From NCBI RefSeq assembly GCF_001677475.2, contig NZ_CP015229.1: DNA of 64,000 nt; one strand, given 5' to 3'. The notes beneath the pieces are model-generated. The model was given only the letters and a program-made list of their open reading frames with translations. It had not been told where the DNA came from and ran no database searches. This DNA comes from Escherichia coli. Its GTDB lineage: Bacteria > Pseudomonadota > Gammaproteobacteria > Enterobacterales > Enterobacteriaceae. This document shows, one piece after another, positions 1,515 to 48,546 of this stretch; the stretch's first letter is position 1; every line of letters begins with the position of its first letter. The translations under genes were made by a program, and so were the position numbers.

Positions 1515-1598
1515 TTATCCCCAGCGGCAAATCGAATACACCACCAGCGCCACCGCAAGTGCAATTCCTACCGTTGTGAATGCTTCAGGCCAGGTCAT
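1515..1598 (-). CDS. Small hydrophobic peptide (27 aa, MTWPEAFTTVGIALAVALVVYSICRWG)
   Basis: Its ATG overlaps the stop of the upstream 140-aa ORF in an ATGA arrangement; single predicted TM helix; below the ORF track size cut-off. Confidence 0.3.
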   Translation of the reverse strand: MTWPEAFTTVGIALAVALVVYSICRWG

Positions 1599-2017
1599 CG
1601 ATTCACCTCCTGCTCAATATTTTTAAGGTCATTTTCCGCATACAGTATTGCTGTCCTGGCTGCTCGTAACCGGGCTTTGGCATTTTTCTCTTCACGTTCA
1701 AGTTTTTCCACAGCTTCACGAAGAGCATCCCGCTTTGCATAGAGTGATTTAATCTCAGACACTATGTTTTCACCGTTTCTCGCACGGTCGAGAACAAGCT
1801 CGAACGGATCTAAAGCCAATCCGCATCGGTTACAGGTAATCGTACGATTCACTTCTGAAATTGTTGTACGGATATGCTGACAGCATTTTTGCTCGCCGCT
1901 TTTTCTGTCGGTTATCACAACGTTGAGAAGCCCTTCTTCCTCTGATTTTGGTTGCACAAGGGTGATAACATTGTCGATGTCATTTTTCATTAGCCCCCCA
2001 CTCTTGTGGTGATTCAT
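1595..2017 (-). CDS. Hypothetical prophage protein with a C-x2-C zinc-ribbon-like motif and a coiled-coil C-terminus
   Basis: ORF track entry; CCQH...CNRCG cysteine pairs; charged helical C-terminal half; a GGGGG Shine-Dalgarno precedes the internal MKNDIDN start. Confidence 0.5.
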   Translation of the reverse strand: MNHHKSGGLMKNDIDNVITLVQPKSEEEGLLNVVITDRKSGEQKCCQHIRTTISEVNRTITCNRCGLALDPFELVLDRARNGENIVSEIKSLYAKRDALREAVEKLEREEKNAKARLRAARTAILYAENDLKNIEQEVNR

Positions 2018-2190
2018 TCATCACCCCACTCATCACAATATGCTTCGACAGGTGTTTTTCCTGCTTCGTAGTCATCACGCCAGGCTTCAGCATCAACAGC
2101 ACTTCCACCACGTAACTCTGCATAGTCCATTAACAGTTCATGCCATTCTTCAAAACTGACGTTGTATTTAGTTGAACCAAAATCAGCCAT
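2014..2190 (-). CDS. Small hypothetical prophage protein (58 aa)
   Basis: Hand-found ORF MADFGSTKYNVSFEEWHELLMDYAELRGGSAVDAEAWRDDYEAGKTPVEAYCDEWGDE filling the gap between two track ORFs; its stop overlaps the next start. Confidence 0.3.
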   Translation of the reverse strand: MADFGSTKYNVSFEEWHELLMDYAELRGGSAVDAEAWRDDYEAGKTPVEAYCDEWGDE

Positions 2191-2365
2191 TTTGTTCTTC
2201 CTCTTCGTCTTTTATTGCGTGATATGAGTAATTGCAGTAGTTAAAGAAAATTTCTTTTGCTTCATCATGAATTTCATCAGGTGTTGCGTCATCGCCCACT
2301 TCGAATACATCCTCAAAATCTCCACCAGCTATTCCCGTTTCAATAATTATTTTGAACTTTCGCAT
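2183..2365 (-). CDS. Small acidic hypothetical prophage protein (about 60 aa from the internal start MRKFKII)
   Basis: ORF track 2183..2419; the internal start is preceded by a purine-rich Shine-Dalgarno. Confidence 0.4.
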   Translation of the reverse strand: MRKFKIIIETGIAGGDFEDVFEVGDDATPDEIHDEAKEIFFNYCNYSYHAIKDEEEEQNG

Positions 2366-2509
2366 TTCACTACCGCCCTTTCGGGCGGCCTCCTGATGAT
2401 TTGAGAGTGCAAAAATCACTCCGGTTAAGGATTAAATTTTATTTACAGAACTGAATTTAATTATTCAGATATACGTATCTGTAACCCTACGAACCTACTC
2501 ACTGGATGC

Positions 2510-2983
2510 CTATTTCATAAAAATAATCCAGTGAGTTTTATCGTTTTTTCCTGTTCGTTGACCGATAACAGGTTTTCTGTCGGTCAGTGCCAATATCTGG
2601 CGAACAGGTATTTGCGTTTCATTCCATTTGAAAATCAGAACGCCGTATGGCTGCAACACACGAAAGGCTTCTTTAAATCCCTGCCGCAAATCATCACGCC
2701 AGGTATCTTTATTTAGCCGTCCATATTTCTTTCCCATCCAGGCGTTATCACCAACACGCTCAAGATGCGGAGGGTCGAATACAACCATCGAAAAAGATGC
2801 GTCTGCAAATGGTAGTGCACGAAAATCTGCTATCAGGTCAGGGCTAATTATCAGGCGTCGTCCATCACATAATGTGTGCTCTTCTTTTCTGATATCGCTA
2901 AATATCGCCCGGTCGTCATTCTTATCGAACCAGAACATACGACTACCACAGGACATATCAAGAATGGTTGCCGATTCACTCAC
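2510..2983 (-). CDS. Small prophage DNA amino-methyltransferase (probable N6-adenine), orphan
   Basis: Motif I-like LDMSCGSR near the N-terminus and catalytic motif IV-like FDPPH about 55 residues later; no adjacent restriction endonuclease ORF. Confidence 0.7.
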   Translation of the reverse strand: MSESATILDMSCGSRMFWFDKNDDRAIFSDIRKEEHTLCDGRRLIISPDLIADFRALPFADASFSMVVFDPPHLERVGDNAWMGKKYGRLNKDTWRDDLRQGFKEAFRVLQPYGVLIFKWNETQIPVRQILALTDRKPVIGQRTGKNDKTHWIIFMK

Positions 2984-3203
2984 TGTTTACCTCCTGCAAC
3001 GCTACCCGGTACGCCTTCTTTATCCACGCTGTACTGCCATATAACTTCGTCTTCATAAAAAACACCCCTGCACGGCTCGCCGATATCCCCGGACAGGCTA
3101 ACAGCACTGCATCCACCACACGGTTATGCTTCCGGAACTCCATTACAGTACTGCTGATAACCACCTGTCCCACCGGGCCGTAATCCTGATACAGGATTTT
3201 CAC
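2976..3203 (-). CDS. Hypothetical prophage protein (75 aa)
   Basis: ORF track entry in a tightly packed minus-strand gene array. Confidence 0.35.
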   Translation of the reverse strand: MKILYQDYGPVGQVVISSTVMEFRKHNRVVDAVLLACPGISASRAGVFFMKTKLYGSTAWIKKAYRVALQEVNSE

Positions 3204-3454
3204 GCAGACACCCTCCTGTCGAAATAAACGTAGTTATTCACTGTGCGCAGCGGCATTCCAAATTTTCTGGCGATTTCTCTCCTGGACACGCCACGCTGAT
3301 GCAATTGTCGCGTCAGCTCAATATCACTCTGCGGATATTTTGCTGACTGGTGATAATCACCCCGTAACATCATACTAATACCCAGTTCCCGCGCTTTCGT
3401 TCTGACCGCCGCCTCACTACGGCCAATCAGACTGCCGATGCTTTTTACCTTCAT
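3200..3454 (-). CDS. Small helix-turn-helix protein (GcrA-like N-terminal motif), about 84 aa
   Basis: ORF track 3200..3601; probable start at the internal MKVKSIGSL; two HTH-like segments (SIGSLIGRSEAAVRTKARELGIS and SRREIARKFGMPLRTV). Confidence 0.45.
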   Translation of the reverse strand: MKVKSIGSLIGRSEAAVRTKARELGISMMLRGDYHQSAKYPQSDIELTRQLHQRGVSRREIARKFGMPLRTVNNYVYFDRRVSA

Positions 3455-3510
3455 TGTTCCCGCGCACTGCCGAAGAATAAGGATTTCAGCCCGCACCCAG
3501 CCACGCCATC

Positions 3511-4272
3511 TCACTTCACATCCTCTCTGGAACAATTCATCTGCCGTATAATATCCCGGTACTTGTTCAGCTCCCGCAGCGCGGCGCAGACACGCTCCCA
3601 CTTCTGGACATGGCTTTTCGCCCGACGCAATTCGCGGTTTGCTATATGCAGCGATGGTAAAATCAGGTCATCCCCTTGCGTTTCGGTGAGCGATGGTAAC
3701 GACTGCACCATGTCCGCCACAGTTTCTGTTTTAATATCTTCCTGTGTTGCAGCTTCCTGTACCGGTAACGCAACACCGGCTGGCTGAGGAAAGGCTTTAC
3801 CATCGGTTTCCGCTACCGATGCGGCTTTCAGCTCTGCTGGTAAATTATCTCCCGGCATGCAGTAGCGAAATTTACCGTTCTGGTTTACGCGTGCCAGCCG
3901 CCCCGTTGCGGTTACTACTGCCAGCGTGGAAGCAACCTTGCGAGTGCTGACACAGAACTTACCCGCCAGTTCCTCACACGTTTTAGCTCCCTCCTGACCG
4001 ATAAACTCAATCATCATGTCAGCGGTAACTTTTCGTTCGACCGCCCTGGTCAGCACATCCGGTACTTCAGATTGTGCTGGCTGCTCTTCGGTTACCCCGG
4101 ATTCACCTTCGCCAGCCAGAAACCAGGTGTGACCCGTTTTATCAACGACGCCATTTCTTTTCAGTTCCCACAGCTCGTTCAGCACTTCTTCACGACTGAT
4201 ATCAAGTCGCGCAGCCAGTTCTGTCGACGTGGCTTTCCCCATTGCTTTCAGTGCGTCAAAAACAGTCTCCAT
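3511..4272 (-). CDS. Hypothetical prophage protein with an N-terminal winged-helix-like domain (about 253 aa)
   Basis: ORF track 3511..4338; the probable start METVFDALK at 4272 avoids overlap with the upstream gene; N-terminal [27 protein letters not shown] resembles a wHTH. Confidence 0.5.
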
Positions 4273-4306
4273 TAAAATTTCCTCCCGGTAAAAATCACTT
4301 CTCAAC

Positions 4307-4972
4307 TCAAACAAAACCAGCCGTTTTCCGGCGTTCATACTCCTGTTTCAGCAACTCAATTGGCGTTGGTCCCGACGGGCGTTTGGGTGCCGCCAGTTGT
4401 CGCCGGACTGGCGGAATGCTCAGGCCATTACCAACATGCTTTGCCCATTTCGTCAGTTGCCGTTCTGCAAGCCGTTTTAACTCCCCTTCGGTCATCTGGC
4501 GCTCAATCCCCTTTGAACGCATCTCGAGGCAAATGTGATACAGCACAGGCTGAGACCACGGGTACTTATCACTTCCGTCGTATCGCCAGGACTCATTGCG
4601 CCAGCGGCGGTACTCCTCCATCACAGCATCCACCGTCAGACCGAATGGATTGGCTCCGCTTTCCGAAATCAGTGCCACAAACTCAGCCAGGTCCGGAGGC
4701 CATGTTTCACCCGCCCGGCAGCGGTCCATGCACTGGCGGCAGACCTGCCGGATTTGCTGCTCAGTCATCGCGCCAATCTGTGCAATCCAGAGCTTCGAAG
4801 GTGCGGCCCCGTTCTTCCGGGGCCAGCGGTTCGAATAAACCTCCCCCATGAGTTCCCACAGCTTCCAGGCCGTTTCCGTCGCTGATAAATCCGTTTTCAC
4901 GTTCCCACTGCTCACGTGCTGCCCGAATTTCCTGAACTGCCCGTGATGCGGTGCCACCTGGTGCTGCTGCAT
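4307..4972 (-). CDS. Lambda P-like replication protein (helicase loader); start uncertain
   Basis: C-terminal half aligns in pattern with lambda P ([28 protein letters not shown]) from memory. The ORF as listed overlaps the upstream gene by 212 bp; internal starts at about 4846 or 4768 are more likely. Confidence 0.55.
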
Positions 4973-5876
4973 GGTTTGCCCCCTTGCTGACTGGTTTAAC
5001 CTGTGCCCTGACGTGATTTACGTGACGGGCGAATTTCTGCTCCCACTGAACCTGCGTGAAAACTTTACCCTCCTCAGTCCAGTAATCCCTGAATGCGGCA
5101 AGTTCAGCAGGTGTAAATTCCGGCTCTGGCAGAGCCATCCCCCACAACGCAGCCCGTCGTCGAAAATCCCGTGACGGATACCAGCTATCGGTCATCGGAA
5201 ATTTTCCGATGGGTTCGTTCACGCCGTCCAGGAGCACGGGGGGGGTTGTCTGTAGCGACAAAACTCCCCGCTCACTGGTCGGAGCACTCTCACGTGCGTT
5301 ATGTGTGGGGTTTAGATCTTTGGGTTCCTTTGGGTTCCGTGATCCGTTTTTGGGTGTCTTTGATGGAAAATTTGGGTGTCTTTGGTTATTTTCCATGCAG
5401 CAAAGAGTTCCGTTTTTGGGGCTGTTTTGTGCTGAAACATAACCGTTTTCGGTACTGTTTTTATTAACAGCACCAATTTTACCCACCTTTAAAGACACCC
5501 GTTTTTGGGTGTATTCAGGCTCGGCAACACTTTCTTCTACACCGATAAGTCGGTACACCACAATTTGCTTTGTTCTGCCTTTTCTCTCACCGGTATCAAT
5601 AATTAACCCAATCTCCATCAGGTGTCGTAAGCTGTCCTGCACAGTCTTTTTGTTCAGTTCCGTTACTTCTGCCAGTGCAGATACAGACGGGTATGCACAC
5701 AAATCGGCACCGCACATATCAGCAAGCCAGGTCAATACTGACTTACTGGATGAACTGCCGGTTTTCACCTTTTTAGCCCACCGTAGTGCATCGATACTCA
5801 TACGAACCTCTGGCAGACATTTGTTTATCTGCAAAGTAATAATGATATTGCTGACGATACGCATGCTTGAAAGCAA
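4761..5876 (-). CDS. Prophage replication initiation protein (N-terminal HTH, C-terminal DnaT-like domain)
   Basis: N-terminal winged-helix-like region (SVSALAEVTELNKKTVQDSLRHLMEIGLI), low-complexity linker, C-terminal WYPSRDFRRR...ELAAFRDYW...WEQKF resembling DnaT/DUF1376-type phage replication proteins; probable true start near 5801 (MSIDALRW). Confidence 0.6.
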   Translation of the reverse strand: MLSSMRIVSNIIITLQINKCLPEVRMSIDALRWAKKVKTGSSSSKSVLTWLADMCGADLCAYPSVSALAEVTELNKKTVQDSLRHLMEIGLIIDTGERKGRTKQIVVYRLIGVEESVAEPEYTQKRVSLKVGKIGAVNKNSTENGYVSAQNSPKNGTLCCMENNQRHPNFPSKTPKNGSRNPKEPKDLNPTHNARESAPTSERGVLSLQTTPPVLLDGVNEPIGKFPMTDSWYPSRDFRRRAALWGMALPEPEFTPAELAAFRDYWTEEGKVFTQVQWEQKFARHVNHVRAQVKPVSKGANHAAAPGGTASRAVQEIRAAREQWERENGFISDGNGLEAVGTHGGGLFEPLAPEERGRTFEALDCTDWRDD

Positions 5877-6324
5877 TAGCTTTTTCTATAAGCTCGTCAG
5901 TCTCACGTTCCACAACAGATGGATCCGCAAAAAGCAGCCCGGACTCCACCACATCGCCATATTCTTTGTTTAACCCGGCGATCATGTACGTAATGCTTTT
6001 TCCGTCAGTAATTTCACAATACAACCTGAAATCGCTGATCCGGATAGCCTCCATAATTGCCGGAATCAGCGCCGTGAATTTTTCCCGCTTATCCCTGGTG
6101 TCGATAGCTTTCCAGCGTTCGAATATCTTCACCCGGTTAACGCCCAGCGCCCGTTGATCAACCTCGCCATCATTAAACGTGACGCGTTGAACATCGATGT
6201 TCGGGCGTTCTTTCAGAGCCCAGAATGCTTCCGTGATTAAAATAGTCGCCTGCTCCTGTGTCATTCCTGGTCGGCATACCCAGGCATCCAGAGCCTCACA
6301 AACCTGTTCAGGGGTGATTTTCAT
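5773..6324 (-). CDS. YdaT-like prophage regulatory protein (CII-position gene)
   Basis: Lies directly downstream of the cro-like gene; central segment REKFTALIPAIMEAIRISDFRL resembles the YdaT-family helix; call is by position and weak motif only. Confidence 0.45.
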   Translation of the reverse strand: MKITPEQVCEALDAWVCRPGMTQEQATILITEAFWALKERPNIDVQRVTFNDGEVDQRALGVNRVKIFERWKAIDTRDKREKFTALIPAIMEAIRISDFRLYCEITDGKSITYMIAGLNKEYGDVVESGLLFADPSVVERETDELIEKAIAFKHAYRQQYHYYFADKQMSARGSYEYRCTTVG

Positions 6325-6535
6325 TGTTCAACCGCCCCGCCCGCTTTGCCTTACGATATTCGTCATAAACTTTGGGGTCGTACTGAAGTTCCCCGCCGGA
6401 TGCCTCTTGCAGGCGCATCGCGCGACCTTCAGGAACCAGTTCCCCCCATGCAGCAATGCTTGCCAGCCTAACTCCTGCGGCATTGGCAAGCTTTGTTTTG
6501 CTGCCAAAAAACGCTATAGCATCAATTTTCAACAT
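6308..6535 (-). CDS. dicC: DicC-like Cro-type regulator
   Basis: 75-aa protein divergent from the DicA-like repressor across a 76-bp operator region; sequence pattern MLKIDAIAFFGSKTKLANAAGVRLASIAAWGE...EGRAMRLQEASGGELQYDPKVYDEY matches my recollection of DicC. Confidence 0.7.
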   Translation of the reverse strand: MLKIDAIAFFGSKTKLANAAGVRLASIAAWGELVPEGRAMRLQEASGGELQYDPKVYDEYRKAKRAGRLNNENHP

Positions 6536-6611: not shown

Positions 6612-7019
6612 ATGAAAAACGAAACCTTCGGTGCTCGCCTCTTACATAGGCGTAAAAAATTAAAACTGTCTCAGGCCGCATTAGGTAAGCTGGTCAAAGT
6701 GGCTCACGTAACAATTTCTCAATGGGAAAGAGATGAAACACAGCCGGCGGGGAAAAGATTATTCGCACTGAGCCAAGCGCTTCAGTGCTCACCGACTTGG
6801 CTTCTTTTTGGGGATGAAGATAAACAACCAGGCGAACCGATCCCGGATAATCAGCCAGCCATTCTGACAGAAGATCAAAAAGAGTTACTTCAACTGTTCG
6901 ACGCACTGCCTGAGTCAGAGCAAAAGGCCCTGTTGTCAGAGATGCGTGCTCGAGTTGAAAATTTCAACAAACTTTTTGAAGAACTACTCAAAGCTCGCAA
7001 AAGAAGCGCAAACAAATAA
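6612..7019 (+). CDS. dicA: DicA-like prophage repressor (XRE-family HTH)
   Basis: 135 aa; strong pattern match to DicA as I recall it (LFALSQALQCSPTWLLFGDEDKQP, LFDALPESEQ, MRARVENFNKLFEELLKAR). Confidence 0.85.
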   Translation: MKNETFGARLLHRRKKLKLSQAALGKLVKVAHVTISQWERDETQPAGKRLFALSQALQCSPTWLLFGDEDKQPGEPIPDNQPAILTEDQKELLQLFDALPESEQKALLSEMRARVENFNKLFEELLKARKRSANK

Positions 7020-9453: not shown

Positions 9454-11925
9454 ATGAATAAAGTCTTTATTTGCGCAGCTATTCCGGACGAACAGGCAAT
9501 AAAGGAAGAAGGTGCAGTCGCTGTGGCCTCTGCCATTGAAGCCGGTGACGAGCGCCGCGCCCGTGCCAAATTTACCTGGCAATTCCTGGAGCAATATCCG
9601 GCTGCTCAGGACTGCGCTTATAAATTTCTTGTCTGTGAGGATAAACCCGGCATGCCCCGCCCTGCCATTGACTCCTGGGATACCGAATATATGCAGGAAA
9701 ACCGCTGGGATGAGGAATGCGCTTCCTTTGTTCCGGTCGAACCAGAATCCGATCCGATGAACGTCAATTTTGACAAGCTGTCCCCTGAAGTACAGAACGC
9801 GGTCCTGATTAAGTTCGGTACATGTGAAAACATCACCGTTGATATGGCGATTGACGCTCAGGAATTACTGCAGGAAGACGTGGCTACCTTTGACGGGCAT
9901 ATCGTTGAAGCACTGATGAAAACGCCTGAAATTAACGCTATGTATCCGGAACGCAAACTGTTCGCTATCGGATGGGTTAAACACAAATGTAAGCCGGGTA
10001 CCAAATGGACCGAAATTCAGGCTGAATTACGTAACTGGAAAAAACGGCAGGACGCAGAGCGCAAAGAGACTGGAAAATACACGTCTGTTGTTGATCTTGC
10101 CCGCGCCAGAGTCAACCGACATAGCACTGAAAACTCAGCAGAAAAAATCAATTCTGTCACTGCCGCCATTCGTCGCGAATACAAGCAGACCTGGAAAACA
10201 CTGGATAAAGAACTGGCCTATGCTCTCTGGCCTGGTGACATTGATGTCCGGAACATTGACGGCAGCATCCATAGATGGGCAAAAAATGAAGTTATCGACA
10301 AGGATCGCGAAGACTGGAAACGCATCTCCGCATCAATGCGCAAACAGCCTGATGCGATTCGCTACAGCCGTCAGACGATTTTTGGCCTTGTTCGTGAACG
10401 TCCGGTCGACATTCACAAAGACCCCGTGGCACTGAATAAATACATCACTGAATACCTTGCGACAAAGGGCGTGTTTGAAGATGAAGAAGAAGATCAGAGC
10501 GTTGTTGATGTTCTCCAGTCGTCAGCATCACAAACTGATGCAGTGGAAACTGAAGTACCTGATACCCAAAAAAATGAAAGCGCGCTGGAAGATGAATCAT
10601 CTGTAGAGCGTGAGGGGCCGTTCTACTTCCTCTTCAGCGATAAGGATGGAGAAAAATACGGTCGCGCAAACAAACTTTCAGGTCTGAATAAGGCGCTCGC
10701 TGCAGGGGCTACTGAAATCACGAAAGAAGAATATTTTGCTCGAAAAAACGGTACATACTCAGGTTCACAACAAAATACTGGTGCATCTGACACGACCGCA
10801 CAACCAGAGCCGGTAAAAGTTACTGCTGACGAAGTGAACAAAATTATGCAGGCAGCCAATATCAGCCTGCCTGACGCCAGTCAGTTGCTCGCTGCATCAC
10901 GTGGTGAATTTGTTGCAGGGATTAGCGACCCGAATGATCTGAAATGGATTAAAGGGATCCAGACCCGCGATTCTATGAACCAAAACCAGCAAGAAACGGA
11001 ACAGAACGACCAGAAAGCGGAACAAAGCAGCCCAAATGCGCAACAAAACGAGCCAGAAACGAAACAATCCGAACCAGTAGTGCAACAGGAACCGGAAAAA
11101 GTCTGCACCGCCTGCGGTCAGAGCGGTGGCGGCAACTGCCCCGATTGTGGCGCGGTCATGGGCAACGCAACATACCAGGAAACATTCGATGAAGAGAATC
11201 AGGTTGAAGCTCAGGAGAATGATCCGGAGGAAATGGAAGGCGCTGAACATCCACACAAGGAGAACACTGGCGGCAATCAGCATCACGCCAGCGATAGTGA
11301 AACTGGCGAGACGGCAGATCCCTTAATTACGGTGAACAGTCATCACGTTATCACATCCACCAGCAGGACGTGTGACCATCTAATGATCGACCTTGAAGCC
11401 ATGGGAATAAATCCTGATGCCCCGATTATCTCAATAGGTGCAATATTTTTCGATCCGCAAACCGGAGATATGGGACCGGAATTTAGTAAGACTGTCGATC
11501 TGGAAACTGCTGGCGGAGTCATTGATCGGGACGCCATTAAATGGTGGCTTAAGCAATCACGCGAAGCGCAATCTGCCATTATGACCGATGAAATCCCGTT
11601 AGATGATGCACTGTTACAATTGCGGGAATTTATCGACGAAAACTCCGGTGAATTTTTTGTTCAGGTCTGGGGAAATGGAGCAAACTTCGACAACACGATT
11701 TTGCGCCGTTCATACGAACGGCAGGGGATCCCCTGCCCGTGGCGTTACTACAACGATCGCGATGTGCGCACAATCGTTGAGCTGGGGAAAGCCATAGACT
11801 TCGATGCCAGAACTGCTATCCCATTCGAAGGTGAGCGCCATAATGCACTTGATGACGCTCGTTACCAGGCAAAATACGTTTCAGCTATCTGGCAAAAACT
11901 GATCCCGAGTCAGGCTGATTTTTAA
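9454..11925 (+). CDS. Large prophage exonuclease in the RecE position (823 aa) with a C-terminal DEDDh-type 3-prime-5-prime exonuclease domain
   Basis: C-terminal motifs MIDLEAMG (Exo I), WGNGANFDNTIL (Exo II) and HNALDDARYQAKY (Exo III); central low-complexity Q/E-rich linker with C-x2-C...C-x2-C; occupies the ydfE/recE position between dicB-ydfD and xis-int. Confidence 0.75.
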   Translation: MNKVFICAAIPDEQAIKEEGAVAVASAIEAGDERRARAKFTWQFLEQYPAAQDCAYKFLVCEDKPGMPRPAIDSWDTEYMQENRWDEECASFVPVEPESDPMNVNFDKLSPEVQNAVLIKFGTCENITVDMAIDAQELLQEDVATFDGHIVEALMKTPEINAMYPERKLFAIGWVKHKCKPGTKWTEIQAELRNWKKRQDAERKETGKYTSVVDLARARVNRHSTENSAEKINSVTAAIRREYKQTWKTLDKELAYALWPGDIDVRNIDGSIHRWAKNEVIDKDREDWKRISASMRKQPDAIRYSRQTIFGLVRERPVDIHKDPVALNKYITEYLATKGVFEDEEEDQSVVDVLQSSASQTDAVETEVPDTQKNESALEDESSVEREGPFYFLFSDKDGEKYGRANKLSGLNKALAAGATEITKEEYFARKNGTYSGSQQNTGASDTTAQPEPVKVTADEVNKIMQAANISLPDASQLLAASRGEFVAGISDPNDLKWIKGIQTRDSMNQNQQETEQNDQKAEQSSPNAQQNEPETKQSEPVVQQEPEKVCTACGQSGGGNCPDCGAVMGNATYQETFDEENQVEAQENDPEEMEGAEHPHKENTGGNQHHASDSETGETADPLITVNSHHVITSTSRTCDHLMIDLEAMGINPDAPIISIGAIFFDPQTGDMGPEFSKTVDLETAGGVIDRDAIKWWLKQSREAQSAIMTDEIPLDDALLQLREFIDENSGEFFVQVWGNGANFDNTILRRSYERQGIPCPWRYYNDRDVRTIVELGKAIDFDARTAIPFEGERHNALDDARYQAKYVSAIWQKLIPSQADF

Positions 11926-11977: not shown

Positions 11978-12187
11978 ATGGCTATGAGCAGCTTATTTTT
12001 AACCGAAGATGAATTGCTAATATTAACGGGCTGCAAATATGCAAGCCACCAGCGAAAATGGTTAATGGAAAACGGGCTTCCGTTCTATACCAATCGTAGT
12101 GGCAAACCGATTGTCAGCCGGGATCTATTTACCTGCAATAAAACTTTACCACCACGCGAGGTAGAGCCGAATTTTGGTGCAATCTGA
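11978..12187 (+). CDS. Excisionase-like small DNA-binding protein
   Basis: 69-aa ORF immediately upstream of and overlapping the integrase start; the position is typical of xis. Confidence 0.5.
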   Translation: MAMSSLFLTEDELLILTGCKYASHQRKWLMENGLPFYTNRSGKPIVSRDLFTCNKTLPPREVEPNFGAI

Positions 12188-13212
12188 TGGGAAGACGAAG
12201 GAAAAATCCTGAACACGAAAAATTACCTCCAAATGTATACCCAAATAAATATAGTTATGTATGGAAACCAACATCCAGAGAATCTGTCACACTAACCGCC
12301 ATCAAGGATGGTTTAGCTGCTTTATGGAAAAAGTATGAGGAAACTGTAAATAATCGCGATCGCGCAATGACATTCGGTCGCTTGTGGGAAAAATTCCTCG
12401 CCAGCGCCTATTACAGTGACCTCAGTCCAAGAACACAAAAAGATTATCTGCAACATCAAAAAAAGTTGCTTGCCGTATTCGGTAAGGTGCCGGCAGATTC
12501 CATAAAACCAGAACACATCCGTCGATACATGGACAAGAGAGGGGAACAGAGTAAAACGCAAGCCAACCATGAAAAAAGCAGTATGTCCCGCGTTTACAAT
12601 TGGGGGTATGAGCGAGGGTACGTGAAGGGTAACCCATGTGCAGGTGTAAGTAAATTCAAGGCCAAAAACCGCGAACGATATGTAACCGACAAAGAATACC
12701 AGGCAGTATTAAGTGTTGCACCTCTTCCTGTTTTTATCGCAATGGAAATTGCCTATCTGTGTGCAGCGAGGGTTTCCGATGTGTTATCACTGAAATGGGA
12801 GCAGATTGGAAACGACGGGATCTTTATCCAGCAAGGGAAAACAGGGAAAAAACAGATAAAAGCATGGAGTCCACGATTACAGGCGGCGATCGAAAAAGCA
12901 AAACAGTTACCAACATCTGCCTATGTAATCAGCAATCAATATGGCAACCGATATATGTACAAAGGTTTTAACGAAATGTGGGTAGAAGCAAGAAATCACG
13001 CAGGCAAAATTTCAGGTATTTTAACCGACTTCACCTTTCATGATCTGAAGGCGAAAGGAATTTCAGACTATGAAGGAAGCAGCCGGGATAAGCAACTTTT
13101 CTCTGGTCACAAAACCGAAGGGCAAGTGCTAATCTATGACAGAAAGGTTAAAGTTTCACCAACACTTGATGTCCCGTTACCTGATAATATTCCAAGAAAA
13201 TATTCCAAGTAA
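12187..13212 (+). CDS. int: Tyrosine-type phage integrase
   Basis: 341 aa; C-terminal catalytic region with H-x-x-R (FTFHDLKAKG) and the tyrosine motif (VLIYDRK); ends about 50 bp from the 3-prime end of tRNA-Ser. Confidence 0.9.
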   Translation: MGRRRKNPEHEKLPPNVYPNKYSYVWKPTSRESVTLTAIKDGLAALWKKYEETVNNRDRAMTFGRLWEKFLASAYYSDLSPRTQKDYLQHQKKLLAVFGKVPADSIKPEHIRRYMDKRGEQSKTQANHEKSSMSRVYNWGYERGYVKGNPCAGVSKFKAKNRERYVTDKEYQAVLSVAPLPVFIAMEIAYLCAARVSDVLSLKWEQIGNDGIFIQQGKTGKKQIKAWSPRLQAAIEKAKQLPTSAYVISNQYGNRYMYKGFNEMWVEARNHAGKISGILTDFTFHDLKAKGISDYEGSSRDKQLFSGHKTEGQVLIYDRKVKVSPTLDVPLPDNIPRKYSK

Positions 13213-13354: not shown

Positions 13355-13447
13355 GTTCAGATGGTTGCCATGATGCCAGGAAATTTGGCATTTTAACAGT
13401 CCCTGTCCGTGCAATTTTGTTCAAGTGACGAGTTTGCGAGCAAAACG

Positions 13448-14245
13448 ATGATTAAGTGGCCCTGGAAAGTACAAGAATCAGCACATCAAACTGCCCTTCC
13501 CTGGCAGGAAGCACTATCGATCCCCCTTTTAACGTGTCTGACGGAACAGGAACAAAGCAAATTAGTCACTCTTGCCGAACGTTTTTTACAGCAAAAACGG
13601 CTTGTTCCTTTACAGGGCTTTGAACTGGATTCATTAAGAAGCTGCCGGATAGCACTTCTATTTTGCCTGCCCGTTCTGGAGTTAGGACTGGAATGGCTGG
13701 ATGGTTTTCATGAAGTCTTAATTTATCCTGCGCCATTTGTGGTCGATGATGAATGGGAAGACGATATCGGTCTGGTGCATAACCAACGTATTGTTCAGTC
13801 AGGTCAGAGCTGGCAGCAAGGGCCTATCGTTTTGAACTGGTTGGATATACAAGATTCTTTTGATGCTTCTGGTTTTAACCTGATTATTCATGAAGTCGCT
13901 CATAAGCTGGACACCCGTAACGGCGATCGCGCCAGTGGAGTTCCCTTTATTCCGTTGCGTGAGGTTGCTGGCTGGGAACACGATCTTCATGCTGCAATGA
14001 ACAACATTCAGGAAGAAATCGAATTAGTTGGCGAGAATGCGGCGAGCATTGATGCTTATGCTGCCAGTGATCCTGCTGAATGTTTTGCCGTACTTTCTGA
14101 ATATTTCTTTAACGCCCCAGAACTTTTTGCTCCTCGTTTCCCTTCATTGTGGCAACGTTTCTGCCAATTTTATCAACAAGATCCTTTGCAGAGACTGCAT
14201 CACGCTAATGATACAGACTCGTTTTCGGCGACGAATGTTCATTAA
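13448..14245 (+). CDS. mtfA: MtfA (Mlc titration factor A) zinc-dependent peptidase
   Basis: Internal start MIKWPWK within ORF 13409..14245; HEVAH zinc-binding motif; matches E. coli MtfA/YeeI in sequence and position next to asnT. Confidence 0.85.
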
Positions 14246-14543: not shown

Positions 14544-14734
14544 TATGAACGCCATCACCATTTTCCCCTCGATTATAAAACTTGAGTTATTCAGTAGTCT
14601 CCCCTCTTGCAACTCACACCCAAAACTGCCTAACGAAAAGTTATTAATTTTCAATCATATTGCTATCAGGATTTACATTTTTTCGCTGTGCTAGAAAGGG
14701 CGCATTTATGTTAGCTCGTTCAGGGAAGGTCAGC

Positions 14735-22738
<8,004 letters not shown>

Positions 22739-42716: not shown

Positions 42717-43001
42717 ATGCAACAAGAAGCGTTAGGAATGGTAGAAACCAAAGGCTTAACTGCCGCCATAGAGGCCGCAGACGCCATGGTGAAGTCGGCA
42801 AATGTTTTGCTGGTCGGCTACGAAAAAATAGGTTCCGGGCTGGTGACAGTCATCGTTCGTGGTGATGTCGGGGCGGTAAAAGCGGCAACAGACGCAGGTG
42901 CCGCAGCTGCGCGTAACGTCGGCGAAGTAAAAGCCGTACACGTTATTCCCCGCCCACATACCGATGTCGAAAAAATCTTACCAAAGGGAATTAACCCATG
43001 A
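42717..43001 (+). CDS. pduA: BMC-H shell protein PduA
   Basis: 94 aa with a single BMC domain ([30 protein letters not shown]...). Confidence 0.9.
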
Positions 43002-43810
43002 GCAGCAATGAACTGGTCAAACAGATCATGGCGCAGGTCATCGCTCGCGTAGCGACGCCAGAGCATGAGGTTCTCCCGAAAACCACTCATCAAATACGAG
43101 AGACGGCTATGGCAGAAAAAAGCTGCACGTTAACAGAATTTGTTGGCACCGCTATTGGCGACACTGTAGGTCTGGTCATTGCGAACGTTGATAGCGCCCT
43201 GTTGGACGCGATGAAACTTGAAAAACGCTATCGTTCCATTGGCATTCTGGGTGCGCGTATTGGCGCAGGGCCACACATTATGGCCGCTGATGAAGCGGTA
43301 AAAGCCACCAACACTGAAGTTATTAGCATTGAACTTCCTCGGGATACTAAAGGCGGTGCCGGACATGGCTCATTGATCCTCTTAGGTGGCAACGATGTTT
43401 CCGACGTGAAACGCGGTATTGAAGTCGCCCTGAAAGAACTCGATCGGACCTTTGGCGATGTCTATGCCAACGAAGCCGGACATCTTGAGCTGCAATATAC
43501 CGCCCGCGCCAGCTATGCACTGGAAAAAGCGTTTGGAGCACCATTGGGACGGGCTTGCGGCGTTATTGTCGGCGCTCCGGCTGCGGTGGGTGTTCTGATG
43601 GCCGACACCGCGCTGAAGTCCGCCAATGTGGATGTCGTGGCATACAGCTCCCCCGCTCAAGGCACCAGCTACAGCAACGAAGTCATTCTGATTATCTCGG
43701 GTGACTCCGGCGCAGTCCGCCAGGCGGTCATCTCCGCACGCGAAATCGGTAAAACCGTGCTTTCGACTCTCGGCGATACACCGAAAAACGATCGCCCTTC
43801 CTACATCTGA
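42998..43810 (+). CDS. pduB: Tandem-BMC shell protein PduB (an internal start would give PduB-prime)
   Basis: 270 aa; ATGA overlap with pduA; internal Met at [11 protein letters not shown] corresponds to the known PduB-prime start. Confidence 0.85.
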
Positions 43811-43828
43811 ATTCTCTGAGGCAGATTT

Positions 43829-45493
43829 ATGAGATCGAAAAGATTTGAAGCACTGGCAAAACGCCCGGTCAACCAGGACGGTTTCGTTAAAGAGTGGATT
43901 GAAGAAGGCTTCATTGCGATGGAAAGCCCGAACGATCCTAAACCGTCAATCAAAATTGTTAACGGCGTCGTTACCGAACTGGATGGAAAACCCGCCAGTC
44001 AGTTTGACCTGATCGACCACTTTATCGCCCGCTACGGCATCAATCTCGCGCGCGCAGAGGAAGTCATCGCGATGGATTCGGTAAAACTGGCCAATATGTT
44101 GTGCGATCCAAATGTCAAACGTAGCAATATCGTTCCCCTTACCACAGCAATGACGCCTGCAAAAATAGTCGAAGTAGTTTCGCAGATGAACGTGGTAGAG
44201 ATGATGATGGCGATGCAGAAAATGCGCGCCCGTCGAACACCATCACAACAGGCTCACGTCACCAACGTCAAAGATAACCCGGTACAAATTGCCGCCGACG
44301 CAGCTGAAGGCGCATGGCGCGGGTTTGATGAACAGGAAACCACCGTTGCCGTTGCTCGCTATGCCCCGTTCAACGCCATCGCCCTGCTGGTCGGCTCACA
44401 GGTGGGACGCCCGGGCGTCTTGACCCAGTGTTCACTGGAAGAAGCCACCGAACTGAAACTCGGTATGTTAGGCCACACCTGTTACGCCGAAACAATTTCT
44501 GTCTATGGTACAGAACCTGTTTTCACCGATGGCGATGACACCCCGTGGTCAAAAGGATTTCTCGCGTCATCCTATGCTTCTCGCGGCTTAAAAATGCGCT
44601 TTACTTCCGGCTCTGGCTCTGAAGTACAGATGGGTTACGCGGAAGGTAAATCAATGCTTTATCTCGAGGCTCGTTGCATTTACATCACCAAAGCCGCAGG
44701 CGTTCAGGGCCTGCAGAGTGGTTCGGTAAGCTGCATCGGTGTTCCATCAGCTGTGCCATCAGGCATCCGCGCGGTATTAGCGGAAAACTTAATTTGCTCA
44801 TCGCTGGACCTGGAATGCGCCTCCAGTAATGACCAGACCTTTACCCACTCGGATATGCGCCGTACAGCACGTTTCCTGATGCAGTTTCTGCCAGGTACCG
44901 ACTTTATCTCTTCCGGTTTTTCCGCTGTGCCGAACTACGACAACATGTTTGCTGGTTCAAACGAAGATGCTGAAGACTTCGATGATTACAACGTCATTCA
45001 GCGTGACCTGAAGGTTGATGGCGGGCTGCGACCAGTACGCGAAGAAGATGTTATCGCTATCCGCAATAAAGCCGCTCGCGCTTTACAGGCTGTCTTTGCC
45101 GGTATGGGACTACCGCCTATTACCGATGAAGAAGTCGAAGCGGCAACCTATGCCCACGGTTCGAAAGATATGCCTGAGCGCAATATTGTGGAAGACATTA
45201 AGTTCGCCCAGGAGATTATCAATAAAAACCGTAACAGCCTGGAAGTGGTGAAAGCCCTGGCGCAAGGCGGTTTTACCGATGTCGCCCAGGCCATGCTCAA
45301 CATGCAAAAAGCAAAACTGACCGGCGATTATCTCCATACCTCAGCCATCATCGTCGATGACGGACAAGTGCTCTCTGCGGTCAATGACATCAATGATTAC
45401 GCCGGACCGGCTACAGGTTACCGCCTGCAAGGGGAACGCTGGGAAGAGATCAAAAATATTCCCGGTGCACTTGATCCCAACGAAATTGACTAA
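43829..45493 (+). CDS. pduC: B12-dependent diol dehydratase large subunit
   Basis: 554 aa; MRSKRFEALAKRPVNQDGFVKEWIEEG... matches PduC/PddA. Confidence 0.9.
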   Translation: MRSKRFEALAKRPVNQDGFVKEWIEEGFIAMESPNDPKPSIKIVNGVVTELDGKPASQFDLIDHFIARYGINLARAEEVIAMDSVKLANMLCDPNVKRSNIVPLTTAMTPAKIVEVVSQMNVVEMMMAMQKMRARRTPSQQAHVTNVKDNPVQIAADAAEGAWRGFDEQETTVAVARYAPFNAIALLVGSQVGRPGVLTQCSLEEATELKLGMLGHTCYAETISVYGTEPVFTDGDDTPWSKGFLASSYASRGLKMRFTSGSGSEVQMGYAEGKSMLYLEARCIYITKAAGVQGLQSGSVSCIGVPSAVPSGIRAVLAENLICSSLDLECASSNDQTFTHSDMRRTARFLMQFLPGTDFISSGFSAVPNYDNMFAGSNEDAEDFDDYNVIQRDLKVDGGLRPVREEDVIAIRNKAARALQAVFAGMGLPPITDEEVEAATYAHGSKDMPERNIVEDIKFAQEIINKNRNSLEVVKALAQGGFTDVAQAMLNMQKAKLTGDYLHTSAIIVDDGQVLSAVNDINDYAGPATGYRLQGERWEEIKNIPGALDPNEID

Positions 45494-45502
45494 GGGTGAG
45501 AA

Positions 45503-46171
45503 ATGGAAATTAACGAAAAATTACTGCGTCAGATTATCGAAGACGTGCTGGCAGAAATGCAAACCAGCGACAAGTCCGTTTCATTTCGCGCACCTGTCTC
45601 TGCAACTGCCTTTTCCGCGCCAGATACCGGAAATTTTCTGACCGAAATTGGCGAAGCACAACAAGGCACTCAGCAAGATGAAGTCATTATTGCTGTAGGC
45701 CCGGCGTTCGGCCTGGCGCAAACCGTCAATATCATCGGTATTCCGCATAAAAACATCTTGTGCGAAGTGATTGCCGGTATCGAAGAAGAAGGCATTAAAG
45801 CCCGTGTGATTCGCTGCTTTAAATCGTCCGATGTCGCATTCGTAGCAGTCGAAGGCGATCGTCTTAGTGGTTCAGGTATTGCTATCGGTATTCAGTCGAA
45901 AGGTACAACGGTTATCCACCAGCAAGGTCTTCCTCCCTTGTCTAACCTGGAACTTTTCCCACAAGCGCCTTTGTTGACGCTGGATACTTATCGTCAGATT
46001 GGCAAAAACGCCGCGCGTTATGCGAAGCGTGAGTCTCCACAACCGGTGCCGACCCTCAACGATCAAATGGCGCGGCCGAAATACCAGGCCAAATCTGCCA
46101 TTTTGCATATTAAAGAGACGAAGTACGTGGTCACTGGCAAAAAACCGCAAGAACTGCGCGTGACGTTTTAA
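45503..46171 (+). CDS. pduD: Diol dehydratase medium subunit
   Basis: 222 aa; position and size match PduD. Confidence 0.85.
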
Positions 46172-46185
46172 CAAAGGAAACCTTC

Positions 46186-46704
46186 ATGAATACCGATGCA
46201 ATTGAGTCGATGGTCAGGGACGTGTTGAATCGCATGAACAGTTTACAGGATGCAGCTCCTGTTTCTGCGGTCCCCAACGCGTCAATACAGAGCGCCAAAG
46301 TGACGGATTACCCGCTGGCAAATAAACATCCGGAATGGGTTAAAACAGCGACCAATAAAACGCTCGACGATTTCACCCTGGAAAATGTGCTAAGCGATAA
46401 CGTCACCGCCCAGGATATGCGCATTACCCCTGAAACATTGCGTATTCAGGCTGCGATTGCCAGAGATGCTGGTCGCGATCGTCTGGCGATGAATTTTGAA
46501 CGCGCCGCTGAGCTTACCTCAGTACCGGATGATCGCATCCTCGAAATCTACAATGCGTTACGCCCTTATCGTTCAACTAAGCAAGAACTTATTGCCATTG
46601 CTGACGATCTTGAACGGCGTTATCAGGCCCAAATTTGTGCTGCATTTGTCCGTGAAGCTGCGGAACTTTATGTCGAGCGCAAAAAACTGAAAGGCGACGA
46701 TTAA
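46186..46704 (+). CDS. pduE: Diol dehydratase small subunit
   Basis: 172 aa; position and size match PduE. Confidence 0.85.
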   Translation: MNTDAIESMVRDVLNRMNSLQDAAPVSAVPNASIQSAKVTDYPLANKHPEWVKTATNKTLDDFTLENVLSDNVTAQDMRITPETLRIQAAIARDAGRDRLAMNFERAAELTSVPDDRILEIYNALRPYRSTKQELIAIADDLERRYQAQICAAFVREAAELYVERKKLKGDD

Positions 46705-46713
46705 GGACGAACT

Positions 46714-48546
46714 ATGCGATATGTAGCAGGCATTGATATCGGCAACTCATCAACAGAGGTTGCGCTGGCAACGCTCAGTGCAACTGGAGAGTTGTCGTTC
46801 GTGAGTAGCGCCCTGGCGGAAACCACAGGAATTAAAGGTACGTTGCGTAACGTCCATGGTATTCAGGAGGCGCTCGCACAGGCAACGAAAAAAGTCGGCA
46901 TCAATGTTAGCGATATTTCGCTTATTCGTATCAATGAAGCAACCCCGGTCATTGGTGATGTGGCGATGGAAACCATCACTGAAACTATCATCACCGAATC
47001 AACCATGATCGGTCACAACCCGAAAACTCCGGGCGGAGTGGGGCTGGGCGTAGGGCTCACCATCACTCCGCAAGAGTTATTAACACGCCCGGCGGACACA
47101 CCTTACATTCTGGTGGTGTCATCGGCATTTGATTTTGCCGATATCGCGAAGATGATAAACGCCTCCGTACGAGCCGGATATCAGCTGACTGGCGTTATTC
47201 TACAACGCGACGATGGTGTGCTGGTCAATAACCGCCTGGAAATTCCTTTACCTATTGTGGATGAAGTCCTCTACATCGATCGTATTCCGCTCGGCATGCT
47301 GGCTGCAATTGAAGTTGCCGTTCCCGGGAAAGTTATCGAAACCCTGTCTAACCCGTATGGGATTGCCACCGTTTTCGCCCTCAATGCTGAAGAGACTAAA
47401 AATATTGTTCCTGTCGCGCGGGCGCTAATCGGCAACCGTTCAGCAGTGGTAGTGAAAACGCCCTCTGGCGACGTTAAAGCCCGTTCGATACCCGCCGGAA
47501 ATATCGAACTGCTTTCTGCCGGGCGCACAACGCGGGTTGATGTAGCTGCTGGTGCCGATGCCATTATGAAAGCGGTCGGTGAGTGCCCAAAACTGGAAAA
47601 CGTGACAGGAGAACCAGGCACCAACATCGGCGGAATGCTGGAACATGTTCGCCAGACCATGGCGGAACTGACCAACAAACCCAGCAACGAAATTTTTATT
47701 CAGGATTTGCTGGCGATAGATACCTCTGTCCCCGTCAGCGTAACCGGCGGTCTGGCAGGTGAATTTTCACTGGAACAGGCTGTGGGTATTGCTTCTATGG
47801 TGAAATCCGACCGTCTGCAAATGGCGATGATCGCCAGTGAAATTAAGCAAAAACTGCATGTTGATGTTCAGGTCGGAGGCGCAGAAGCAGAAGCCGCCAT
47901 TCAGGGGGCCTTGACTACCCCAGGAACCACACGTCCACTGGCAATTCTGGACTTAGGTGCAGGCTCTACCGATGCCTCCATCATCAATCAGAAAGGGGAA
48001 ATCGTTGCCACTCACCTTGCGGGAGCGGGCGACATGGTAACGATGATTATCGCTCGTGAGCTGGGCTTAAATGATCGTTATCTGGCAGAAGAAATCAAAA
48101 AGTACCCGTTGGCAAAAGTAGAAAGCCTGTTCCACTTACGCCATGAAGATGGCAGCGTTCAGTTCTTCCCTACTCCCCTATCCCCTCATGTATTCGCCCG
48201 CGTTTGTGTGGTGAAACCTGACGAACTGGTGCCTATTCCCGGTGATTTGACGCTGGAAAAAGTACGCGCTGTTCGTCGCAGTGCGAAAGAACGTGTCTTC
48301 GTAACCAATGCCCTGCGCGCGCTACGTCAGGTAAGCCCTGCCGGAAATATTCGCGACATTCCGTTCGTCGTTCTGGTGGGTGGTTCTTCGCTGGATTTCG
48401 AAGTACCGCAATTGGTCACCGACGCGCTGGCACATTATCGACTGGTCGCCGGGCGGGGGAATATCCGTGGTAGCGAAGGTCCGCGCAACGCGGTAGCTAC
48501 TGGGCTACTCATCGCCTGGCACAAGGAGTCGATTCATGGAAAGTAA
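46714..48546 (+). CDS. pduG: Diol dehydratase reactivase large subunit
   Basis: 610 aa; MRYVAGIDIGNSSTEVALA... actin/Hsp70-like ATPase fold typical of PduG/DdrA. Confidence 0.85.
   Translation: MRYVAGIDIGNSSTEVALATLSATGELSFVSSALAETTGIKGTLRNVHGIQEALAQATKKVGINVSDISLIRINEATPVIGDVAMETITETIITESTMIGHNPKTPGGVGLGVGLTITPQELLTRPADTPYILVVSSAFDFADIAKMINASVRAGYQLTGVILQRDDGVLVNNRLEIPLPIVDEVLYIDRIPLGMLAAIEVAVPGKVIETLSNPYGIATVFALNAEETKNIVPVARALIGNRSAVVVKTPSGDVKARSIPAGNIELLSAGRTTRVDVAAGADAIMKAVGECPKLENVTGEPGTNIGGMLEHVRQTMAELTNKPSNEIFIQDLLAIDTSVPVSVTGGLAGEFSLEQAVGIASMVKSDRLQMAMIASEIKQKLHVDVQVGGAEAEAAIQGALTTPGTTRPLAILDLGAGSTDASIINQKGEIVATHLAGAGDMVTMIIARELGLNDRYLAEEIKKYPLAKVESLFHLRHEDGSVQFFPTPLSPHVFARVCVVKPDELVPIPGDLTLEKVRAVRRSAKERVFVTNALRALRQVSPAGNIRDIPFVVLVGGSSLDFEVPQLVTDALAHYRLVAGRGNIRGSEGPRNAVATGLLIAWHKESIHGK

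Follow-up and report, generated by a model that had tools for sequence, protein, structure and literature searches.

Several orphan methyltransferases carried by prophages have been described. M.EcoGII is a prophage-borne, non-specific adenine methyltransferase that is silent in its own prophage (PMC5778455), and Hia5 and Hin1523 are likewise non-specific adenine methyltransferases (PMC3299994). All three give broad protection from restriction (PMC5778455, PMC3299994, PMC7544214). PamA, a 141 amino acid protein from the S. aureus prophage mPhi11, renders GATC sites DpnI-sensitive in vivo and, by way of its methylase activity, changes the virulence of its host (bioRxiv 10.1101/2024.04.17.589803) – so an enzyme this small can methylate DNA in vivo. 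Methyltransferases of group A Streptococcus (GAS) prophages, by comparison, yielded no transcripts and no motif (PMC8597746).

We examined a 64,000-nucleotide window of Escherichia coli DNA (contig NZ_CP015229.1) for which an initial annotation, made from the sequence alone, had proposed a small orphan amino-methyltransferase in a prophage. The coordinates given for the gene were correct, and its strand, left unstated at the time, is minus (Table 1). The translated reading frame opens MSESATILDMSCGSRMFWFDK. The 5' end of the gene shares 8 nt with the 3' end of the upstream ORF, TGA stop included (GTGAGTGA), which suggests that the two are translationally coupled. The upstream ORF is part of the operon context and was not a conserved partner when neighbors were clustered across 87 related loci.

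Table 1. Features of the methyltransferase gene and of the surrounding prophage, in window positions.
Feature	Position	Strand	Basis
Methyltransferase CDS, 157 aa, phrog_954 family	2510-2983	minus	ORF list, profile matches, AlphaFold2 model
GTG start codon of the methyltransferase	2983-2981	minus	direct sequence reading
Shine-Dalgarno AGGAGG, perfect site, 6-nt spacer to the GTG	2990-2995	minus	direct sequence reading
Motif I / SAM-binding G-loop LDMSCGSR, residues 8-15	2939-2962	minus	80-sequence alignment, pattern counts
D30, invariant acidic residue ending strand beta-2 (motif II)	2894-2896	minus	alignment column; model strand 26-30
Motif IV DPPH, residues 70-73, right after strand beta-4	2765-2776	minus; plus strand atgcggagggtc	alignment, model
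Upstream ORF, 75 aa, phrog_1001, function not annotated	2976-3203	minus	ORF list, PHROGs match
hok, Hok/Gef toxin ORF, 70 aa, downstream of the methyltransferase, nin-like region	1149-1361	minus	PF01848 E 3e-23
DUF7167 ORF, downstream of the methyltransferase	2183-2419	minus	
HTH protein	3200-3601	minus	
DUF1627	3511-4338	minus	
P-like replication gene	4307-4972	minus	
O-like replication gene	4761-5876	minus	
YdaT/cII-like	5773-6324	minus	
cro-like	6308-6535	minus	
cI-like repressor	6612-7019	plus	
RecE-like exonuclease	9454-11925		
Integrase, prophage end	12187-13212		

The first ~13,300 positions of the window form the left part of a lambdoid prophage. The methyltransferase is the eighth gene of a contiguous minus-strand operon that starts at cro and runs opposite to cI, and it lies beyond the replication genes, in the nin-like accessory part of this early-right operon. 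Two further small ORFs on the minus strand separate DUF7167 from hok. The same gene order, hok included, is found in E. coli GB089 (RefSeq), where RusA and the Q antiterminator follow. The product of an ORF at 1595-2017 on the minus strand (140 amino acids, phrog_1621) contains two CxxC pairs, and its C-terminal segment resembles a coiled coil; Pfam gave no match, and its only similarity is a faint one to SMC-like LmuB models.

Consistent with the earlier statement that no endonuclease neighbors the gene, Pfam, PHROGs and PADLOC searches identified no nuclease among the five flanking ORFs (1595-3601), whose matches are to DUF7167, to phrog_1001, 1997, 519 and 1621 (all of unknown function) and to an HTH regulator. 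A Type II restriction-modification system would place a cognate endonuclease next to the methyltransferase; none is adjacent here, and the gene is an orphan. Promoter- and terminator-like matches between 1000 and 7200 did not exceed the shuffled expectation, none lay ahead of the methyltransferase, and the only promoter-like match nearby sits inside the gene itself. A promoter of its own, serving expression in the lysogen, was considered and gave no signal above chance. Given the contiguous operon from cro and the lack of an own promoter signal, we infer that the gene is silent in the lysogen and expressed once the prophage is induced.

The protein matches its family far above chance, and the gene is real and intact. 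Its best match is to the phrog_954 profile, named 'DNA methyltransferase' (E 4.4e-86, residues 3-157), followed by the PADLOC models PDLC03288 (MTase_II; E 1.2e-72, residues 6-157) and PDLC03730 (oMTase; E 6.1e-49). The PADLOC models were presumably built from REBASE sequences. A match to them means that the family is catalogued as Type II or orphan methyltransferases and is not proof that any member was assayed. Pfam placed the protein just above threshold in Methyltransf_11 (21.9 bits, cutoff 21.2) and below threshold in Methyltransf_25; NCBIfam holds no model for the family. Comparison with copies 91-95% identical, among which dS is unsaturated, gave a dN/dS of 0.10-0.15 and, judged from these substitutions, this is a functional gene under purifying selection.

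We observed that the family is both common and widespread. NCBI already lists a protein identical to ours (ANO89732.1 and others, on 161 contigs) as a 'class I SAM-dependent methyltransferase', the name also given to RefSeq WP_000004204.1 of the same family, and annotated E. coli copies are 98.5% nucleotide-identical and occupy the same prophage position. Of 5426 complete E. coli genomes, 874 (16%) carry the gene, in at most three copies each and almost always on the chromosome. Homologs in the protein database fall into 5487 clusters at 90% identity and 1981 representatives at 50% identity. By tblastn, 253 deposited phage genomes carry the gene. Their hosts span at least five bacterial phyla, with Proteobacteria, Firmicutes, Actinobacteria and Bacteroidota among the groups represented, and include Streptococcus (67), Vibrio (38), Acinetobacter, Porphyromonas, Listeria, Gordonia, Lactobacillus, Enterococcus, Staphylococcus, Bacteroides, Fusobacterium and Corynebacterium. 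These phage homologs are typically 47-65% identical to the query, and one in the haloarchaeal virus HSTV-1 is 36% identical. The methyltransferase is, in short, an ordinary and already annotated member of a very common family of orphan phage methyltransferases.

Many homologs are longer than the query. N-terminal extensions of 40-170 amino acids, considered as candidate DNA-binding domains, contained no Pfam domain and had no similarity to one another; they most likely represent miscalled starts. Copies of 248 amino acids occur in Leclercia, Citrobacter and Klebsiella (P0010, P0012, P0060, P0085; loci L024, L045, L048). A two-domain enzyme was considered for this form and rejected, as its ~90 amino acid tail shares homology with the N-terminal end of the variable ea22/EaA-like gene downstream. 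From this homology, the longer form looks like a recurrent read-through or fusion – an artefact of gene decay rather than a second domain.

In the literature that could be searched, we found no study of phrog_954, no demonstrated substrate for any member and nothing on a 'smallest' or 'minimal' DNA methyltransferase. Papers on STEC, GAS and pneumococcal prophage methyltransferases and on Serratia and Sinorhizobium phage methyltransferases were considered and concern other families. The names 'DNA methyltransferase' and 'cytosine methyltransferase' in phage records are unverified annotations.

An AlphaFold2 model computed from an 80-sequence alignment reached a pLDDT of 95.4 and a pTM of 0.90. 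Consistent with a class I methyltransferase, the model contains the seven-stranded beta-sheet Rossmann fold, and in the alignment the glycine-rich loop of motif I follows beta-1, while beta-2 closes with an acidic residue. Strands were modeled at residues 7-9, 26-30, 34-37, 43-46, 64-69, 110-121, 140-144 and 150-156, and helices at only three places (82-87, 95-109 and 127-131), none of them within residues 1-81. The model thus lacks the canonical class I helices A-C and has a beta-hairpin (34-46) in place of helix B – which accounts for the small size of the protein. Neither Pfam nor the model revealed a recognition or DNA-binding domain. The best match in a PDB profile search was PH0226 (E 3e-5), an uncharacterised Methyltransf_11 protein that differs in its length of ~226 residues and its full set of helices; the segment aligned just before the query DPPH reads DYVIF, and the alignment ends there. 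We found no close relative that has been characterised or solved, and structure alone does not identify the substrate. We regard it as nearly certain that the protein works as a SAM-dependent methyltransferase.

The same alignment, which spans homologs down to 42% identity, clarified the motifs. As originally noted, LDMSCGSR precedes DPPH. The family consensus of motif I is LDxCCGSRMFWF, with D9 invariant and C12 and G13 conserved in at least 90% of sequences. Nine columns (D9, D30, P48, D70, P71, P72, H73, R108 and W120) are invariant, and all nine residues are kept in the query; L8, C12, G13, R32, D49, D53 and F54 are among those conserved at 90% or more. D30 we take to bind the ribose hydroxyls of SAM, as the residue at this place usually does, and D53-F54, corresponding to motif III, is retained. 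Position 11 is serine in the query and cysteine in most relatives, with C, A, T or S found in intact ones.

Amino-methyltransferases of nucleic acids (N6-A, N4-C or N2-G) carry a (D/N/S)-P-P-(Y/F/W) tetrapeptide immediately behind strand beta-4; in the query an invariant D-P-P follows strand 64-69, and the fourth residue is histidine. The initial annotation considered this histidine and the very small size of the protein unusual, and named as refuting its proposal a set of homologs in which DPPH proves common. The homologs are such a set: 257 of the 268 retrieved have DPPH, and a core of ~150 amino acids is the norm for the family. What stands of the original description is a small orphan SAM-dependent methyltransferase in a prophage; its supposed oddities do not. 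Two exceptions within the family bear on how the motif should be read. One homolog 92% identical to the query, from a cluster of 43 sequences, has DPPY at this site (P0004), and another has NPPH (P0061). As these are alternatives allowed in (D/N)PP(Y/F), we read DPPH as motif IV, and the substitutions support its being equivalent to the (D/N)PP(Y/F) catalytic motif, with the histidine in the base-stacking position. In the searchable literature we found no characterised precedent for histidine at the fourth position and no report of a DPPH motif in a methyltransferase.

Neither class beta nor class gamma of the DNA amino-methyltransferases accommodates the protein. Class beta enzymes, CcrM among them, have a permuted order of motif IV, recognition domain and motif I, whereas here motif I comes before DPPH. 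The query has no match to N6_N4_Mtase (PF01555), for which the best family member (P0129) scored 18 bits, below the cutoff of 26.7; 21 of the 80 members match this domain weakly and below threshold, over the DPPH region only. The class gamma order, motif I then motif IV, is present. The C-terminal recognition domain of that class is absent, the protein ending 84 residues past DPPH with strands beta-5 to beta-7 only, and PF02384 was matched by neither the query nor any of the 80 members. M.TaqI, of class gamma, shares the linear order (its motif IV being NPPY) and some structure (Foldseek E 8e-5, TM 0.54) but carries a large C-terminal recognition domain, measures 382-393 residues against 157 and gave no match at the sequence level. 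M.EcoGII, Hia5 and Hin1523 are about twice the size of the query. Like it they are orphan and prophage-borne. Their motif IV is of the DPPY type; unlike the query they are class beta and circularly permuted, with motif IV before motif I.

PamA, which we place by inference in PF05869, and the small Dam proteins of that family are similar in being phage orphans of 141-170 amino acids with no recognition domain. Compared by description only, PamA has NPPY and the query DPPH, and PF05869 had no Pfam match in the query or in the 80-member set. Kinship was tried with hhalign and rejected: the probability was 3% for the family against gp24 of Bacteroides phage BKO1-TP3 (PF05869) and 0.4% against a small NPPF-containing protein of Listeria phage LP-101. 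YfdM of E. coli K-12, considered as a truncated homolog, was set aside at a BLASTP E of 8.6. The yfdM product (L003 6113-6388) is a 91 amino acid fragment of the PF05869 Dam type, unrelated to the phrog_954 family, and a paper on YfdM and SW1 has no bearing on that family.

In every phage inspected, the gene of this family sits in the early replication and recombination accessory region. It follows a DnaC-like loader, Erf, SSB and RusA in phage T12, is part of the ea region in Salmonella phage Oslo, with Erf/Abc2 on one side and the integrase on the other, and follows the MCM helicase in HSTV-1, where a ParB-N6_N4 enzyme is near. All-against-all clustering of same-strand ORFs from 87 loci yielded no conserved partner. 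A Trm112-like subunit and a specificity protein were both considered for that role, and these loci contained no conserved candidate for either.

Other methyltransferases recur beside the family gene. A C5 methyltransferase (PF00145) is near it in 12 of the 87 loci and overlaps its start in Gordonia phage Eviarto. Bacteroides phage BKO1-TP3 has a PF05869 Dam close to it and Staphylococcus phage QT1 a PF02384 enzyme, and in Listeria phage LP-101 the NPPF-containing protein is directly upstream. Such 'methyltransferase islands', some with overlapping starts and stops, occur in phages unrelated to one another, at L006 918-2968, L008 1956-2959 and L009 1743-3196, and further ones at L007 106-2971, L010 2540-5335 and L045 4001-6606. 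The islands argue that the small enzyme acts on DNA too. They do not indicate the base, since they include both adenine and cytosine enzymes.

Taken with the domain and motif evidence, this context leads us to favor, with slightly more confidence than doubt, an orphan phage DNA amino-methyltransferase that serves to protect phage DNA. After induction, the gene would be transcribed from pR together with the replication genes, as its position implies. SAM would be bound through motif I, D30 and D53-F54, judging from their conservation and from class I enzymes in general. A flipped DNA base could then be held between H73, in the stacking role of Tyr or Phe, and probably W120, and its exocyclic amino group methylated. 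Characterised enzymes with DPPx or NPPx act mostly on adenine (or on guanine-N2), and N4-cytosine enzymes mostly have SPPx. Because the motif begins with D, N6-adenine would be the favored target, with N4-cytosine possible. We observed that the substrate-facing loops (KKYGxL and W95) are conserved, not variable, across phyla; together with the lack of a recognition domain, this leads us to expect a short or relaxed specificity. Broad methylation of that kind would shield newly replicated phage DNA from restriction in the next host. In this respect the enzyme may work like M.EcoGII or Hia5, to which it would be unrelated beyond the shared fold. A hold on duplex DNA is, on the other hand, hard to explain for a protein with no recognition domain and, in the model, no helices A-C.

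We also entertain, tentatively and as the weaker proposal, a stronger form of the DNA reading: that phrog_954 is the smallest self-sufficient nucleic-acid amino-methyltransferase, a ~150 amino acid Rossmann core, stripped of helices A-C and of any recognition domain and with a motif-IV histidine, that methylates DNA, perhaps single-stranded or replicating, almost without specificity. A minimal and near-unspecific DNA methyltransferase would explain why temperate phages of hosts as far apart as Proteobacteria and Firmicutes keep ~50% identity, and a halovirus 36%. Less probably, phrog_954 targets a universal RNA or a nucleotide signal of a defense system.

Other substrates and roles were weighed against phage DNA protection. 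An RNA or protein amino-methyltransferase – forming m2G or m6A in tRNA or rRNA, or modifying a glutamine side chain – would retune translation or evade RNA-targeting defense, and both this chemistry and this role seem unlikely to us. The RNA guanine-N2 methyltransferases Trm11, TrmN and RsmC have THUMP or N-terminal RNA-binding domains that the query lacks, and their similarity to it is not above that of generic methyltransferases. Some sequence evidence can be cited for a Methyltransf_11-type enzyme acting on a small molecule or another non-nucleic-acid substrate, in which DPPH would only mimic motif IV. Methyltransf_11 and Methyltransf_25 are the only Pfam families whose thresholds are reached or approached (in 77 and 68 of the 80 members, respectively), PH0226 is the best structural profile match and, as we read the alignment, LPFxDxSFxxVVF...H...RVLxPxG fits the Methyltransf_11 pattern, in which a histidine commonly follows beta-4. 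Such an enzyme would nevertheless leave the invariance of D-P-P-H unexplained, as well as the rare variants being exactly DPPY and NPPH and the N6_N4_Mtase similarity of 21 members falling over this very region; no biosynthetic neighbors were found by clustering the 87 loci, and confinement to phage early operons across five phyla is unaccounted for. We consider it improbable.

The initial annotation's second suggestion, an epigenetic regulator made from the prophage that alters host expression in the lysogen, strikes us as similarly improbable. PamA, a 141 amino acid orphan whose methylase activity changes S. aureus virulence, is a precedent for it. Against it stand the place of our gene as eighth in an operon that runs from cro opposite to cI, the intragenic position of the sole promoter-like match nearby among matches that do not exceed the shuffled expectation, and the silence in lysogens of prophage methyltransferases in comparable positions (PMC5778455, PMC8597746). 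The shortness of the gene, its lack of a recognition domain and the Ser11 found where most relatives have cysteine might suggest that a larger methyltransferase has decayed here to an inactive remnant. We judge this very improbable: the ~150 amino acid core is the complete family unit, the N-terminal extensions of homologs are mutually unrelated, every invariant residue is kept under a low dN/dS, and position 11 also varies in intact relatives.

Within this window, the gene is a routine accessory of a lambdoid prophage, annotated in hundreds of E. coli genomes. The wider interest lies in the family, which is among the most widespread of phage methyltransferases, with thousands of clusters and, in the literature we found, an undemonstrated substrate; it also occurs in phages of the pathogens S. 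pyogenes, S. pneumoniae, Listeria, Acinetobacter and Porphyromonas. If members are DNA methyltransferases of low specificity that dispense with a recognition domain, they would offer a compact tool enzyme like M.EcoGII and would act as a general anti-restriction factor bearing on phage host range. They would also call for caution in methylome studies, as the activity would be invisible in uninduced lysogens. Because the gene lies in a repressor-controlled operon and shows no promoter signal above chance, a negative methylome of the lysogen – the outcome that the initial annotation would have counted against the enzyme – would not refute its activity.

Host genes occupy the window past the integrase. 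An M90 peptidase gene (mtfA-like) lies at 13409-14245 and is followed at 14660-22738 by an inverse autotransporter of 2692 amino acids that carries 16 Big_1/Invasin_D3 repeats in addition to its IAT_beta domain. This host part, including the mtfA-like gene, the autotransporter and a pdu operon, is ~98.5% identical to E. coli. Of 5426 complete E. coli genomes, only 643 match the propanediol utilisation (pdu) operon (43000-47000) at ~98.5% identity; judged by this match, the host strain belongs to the pdu-positive minority of the species.
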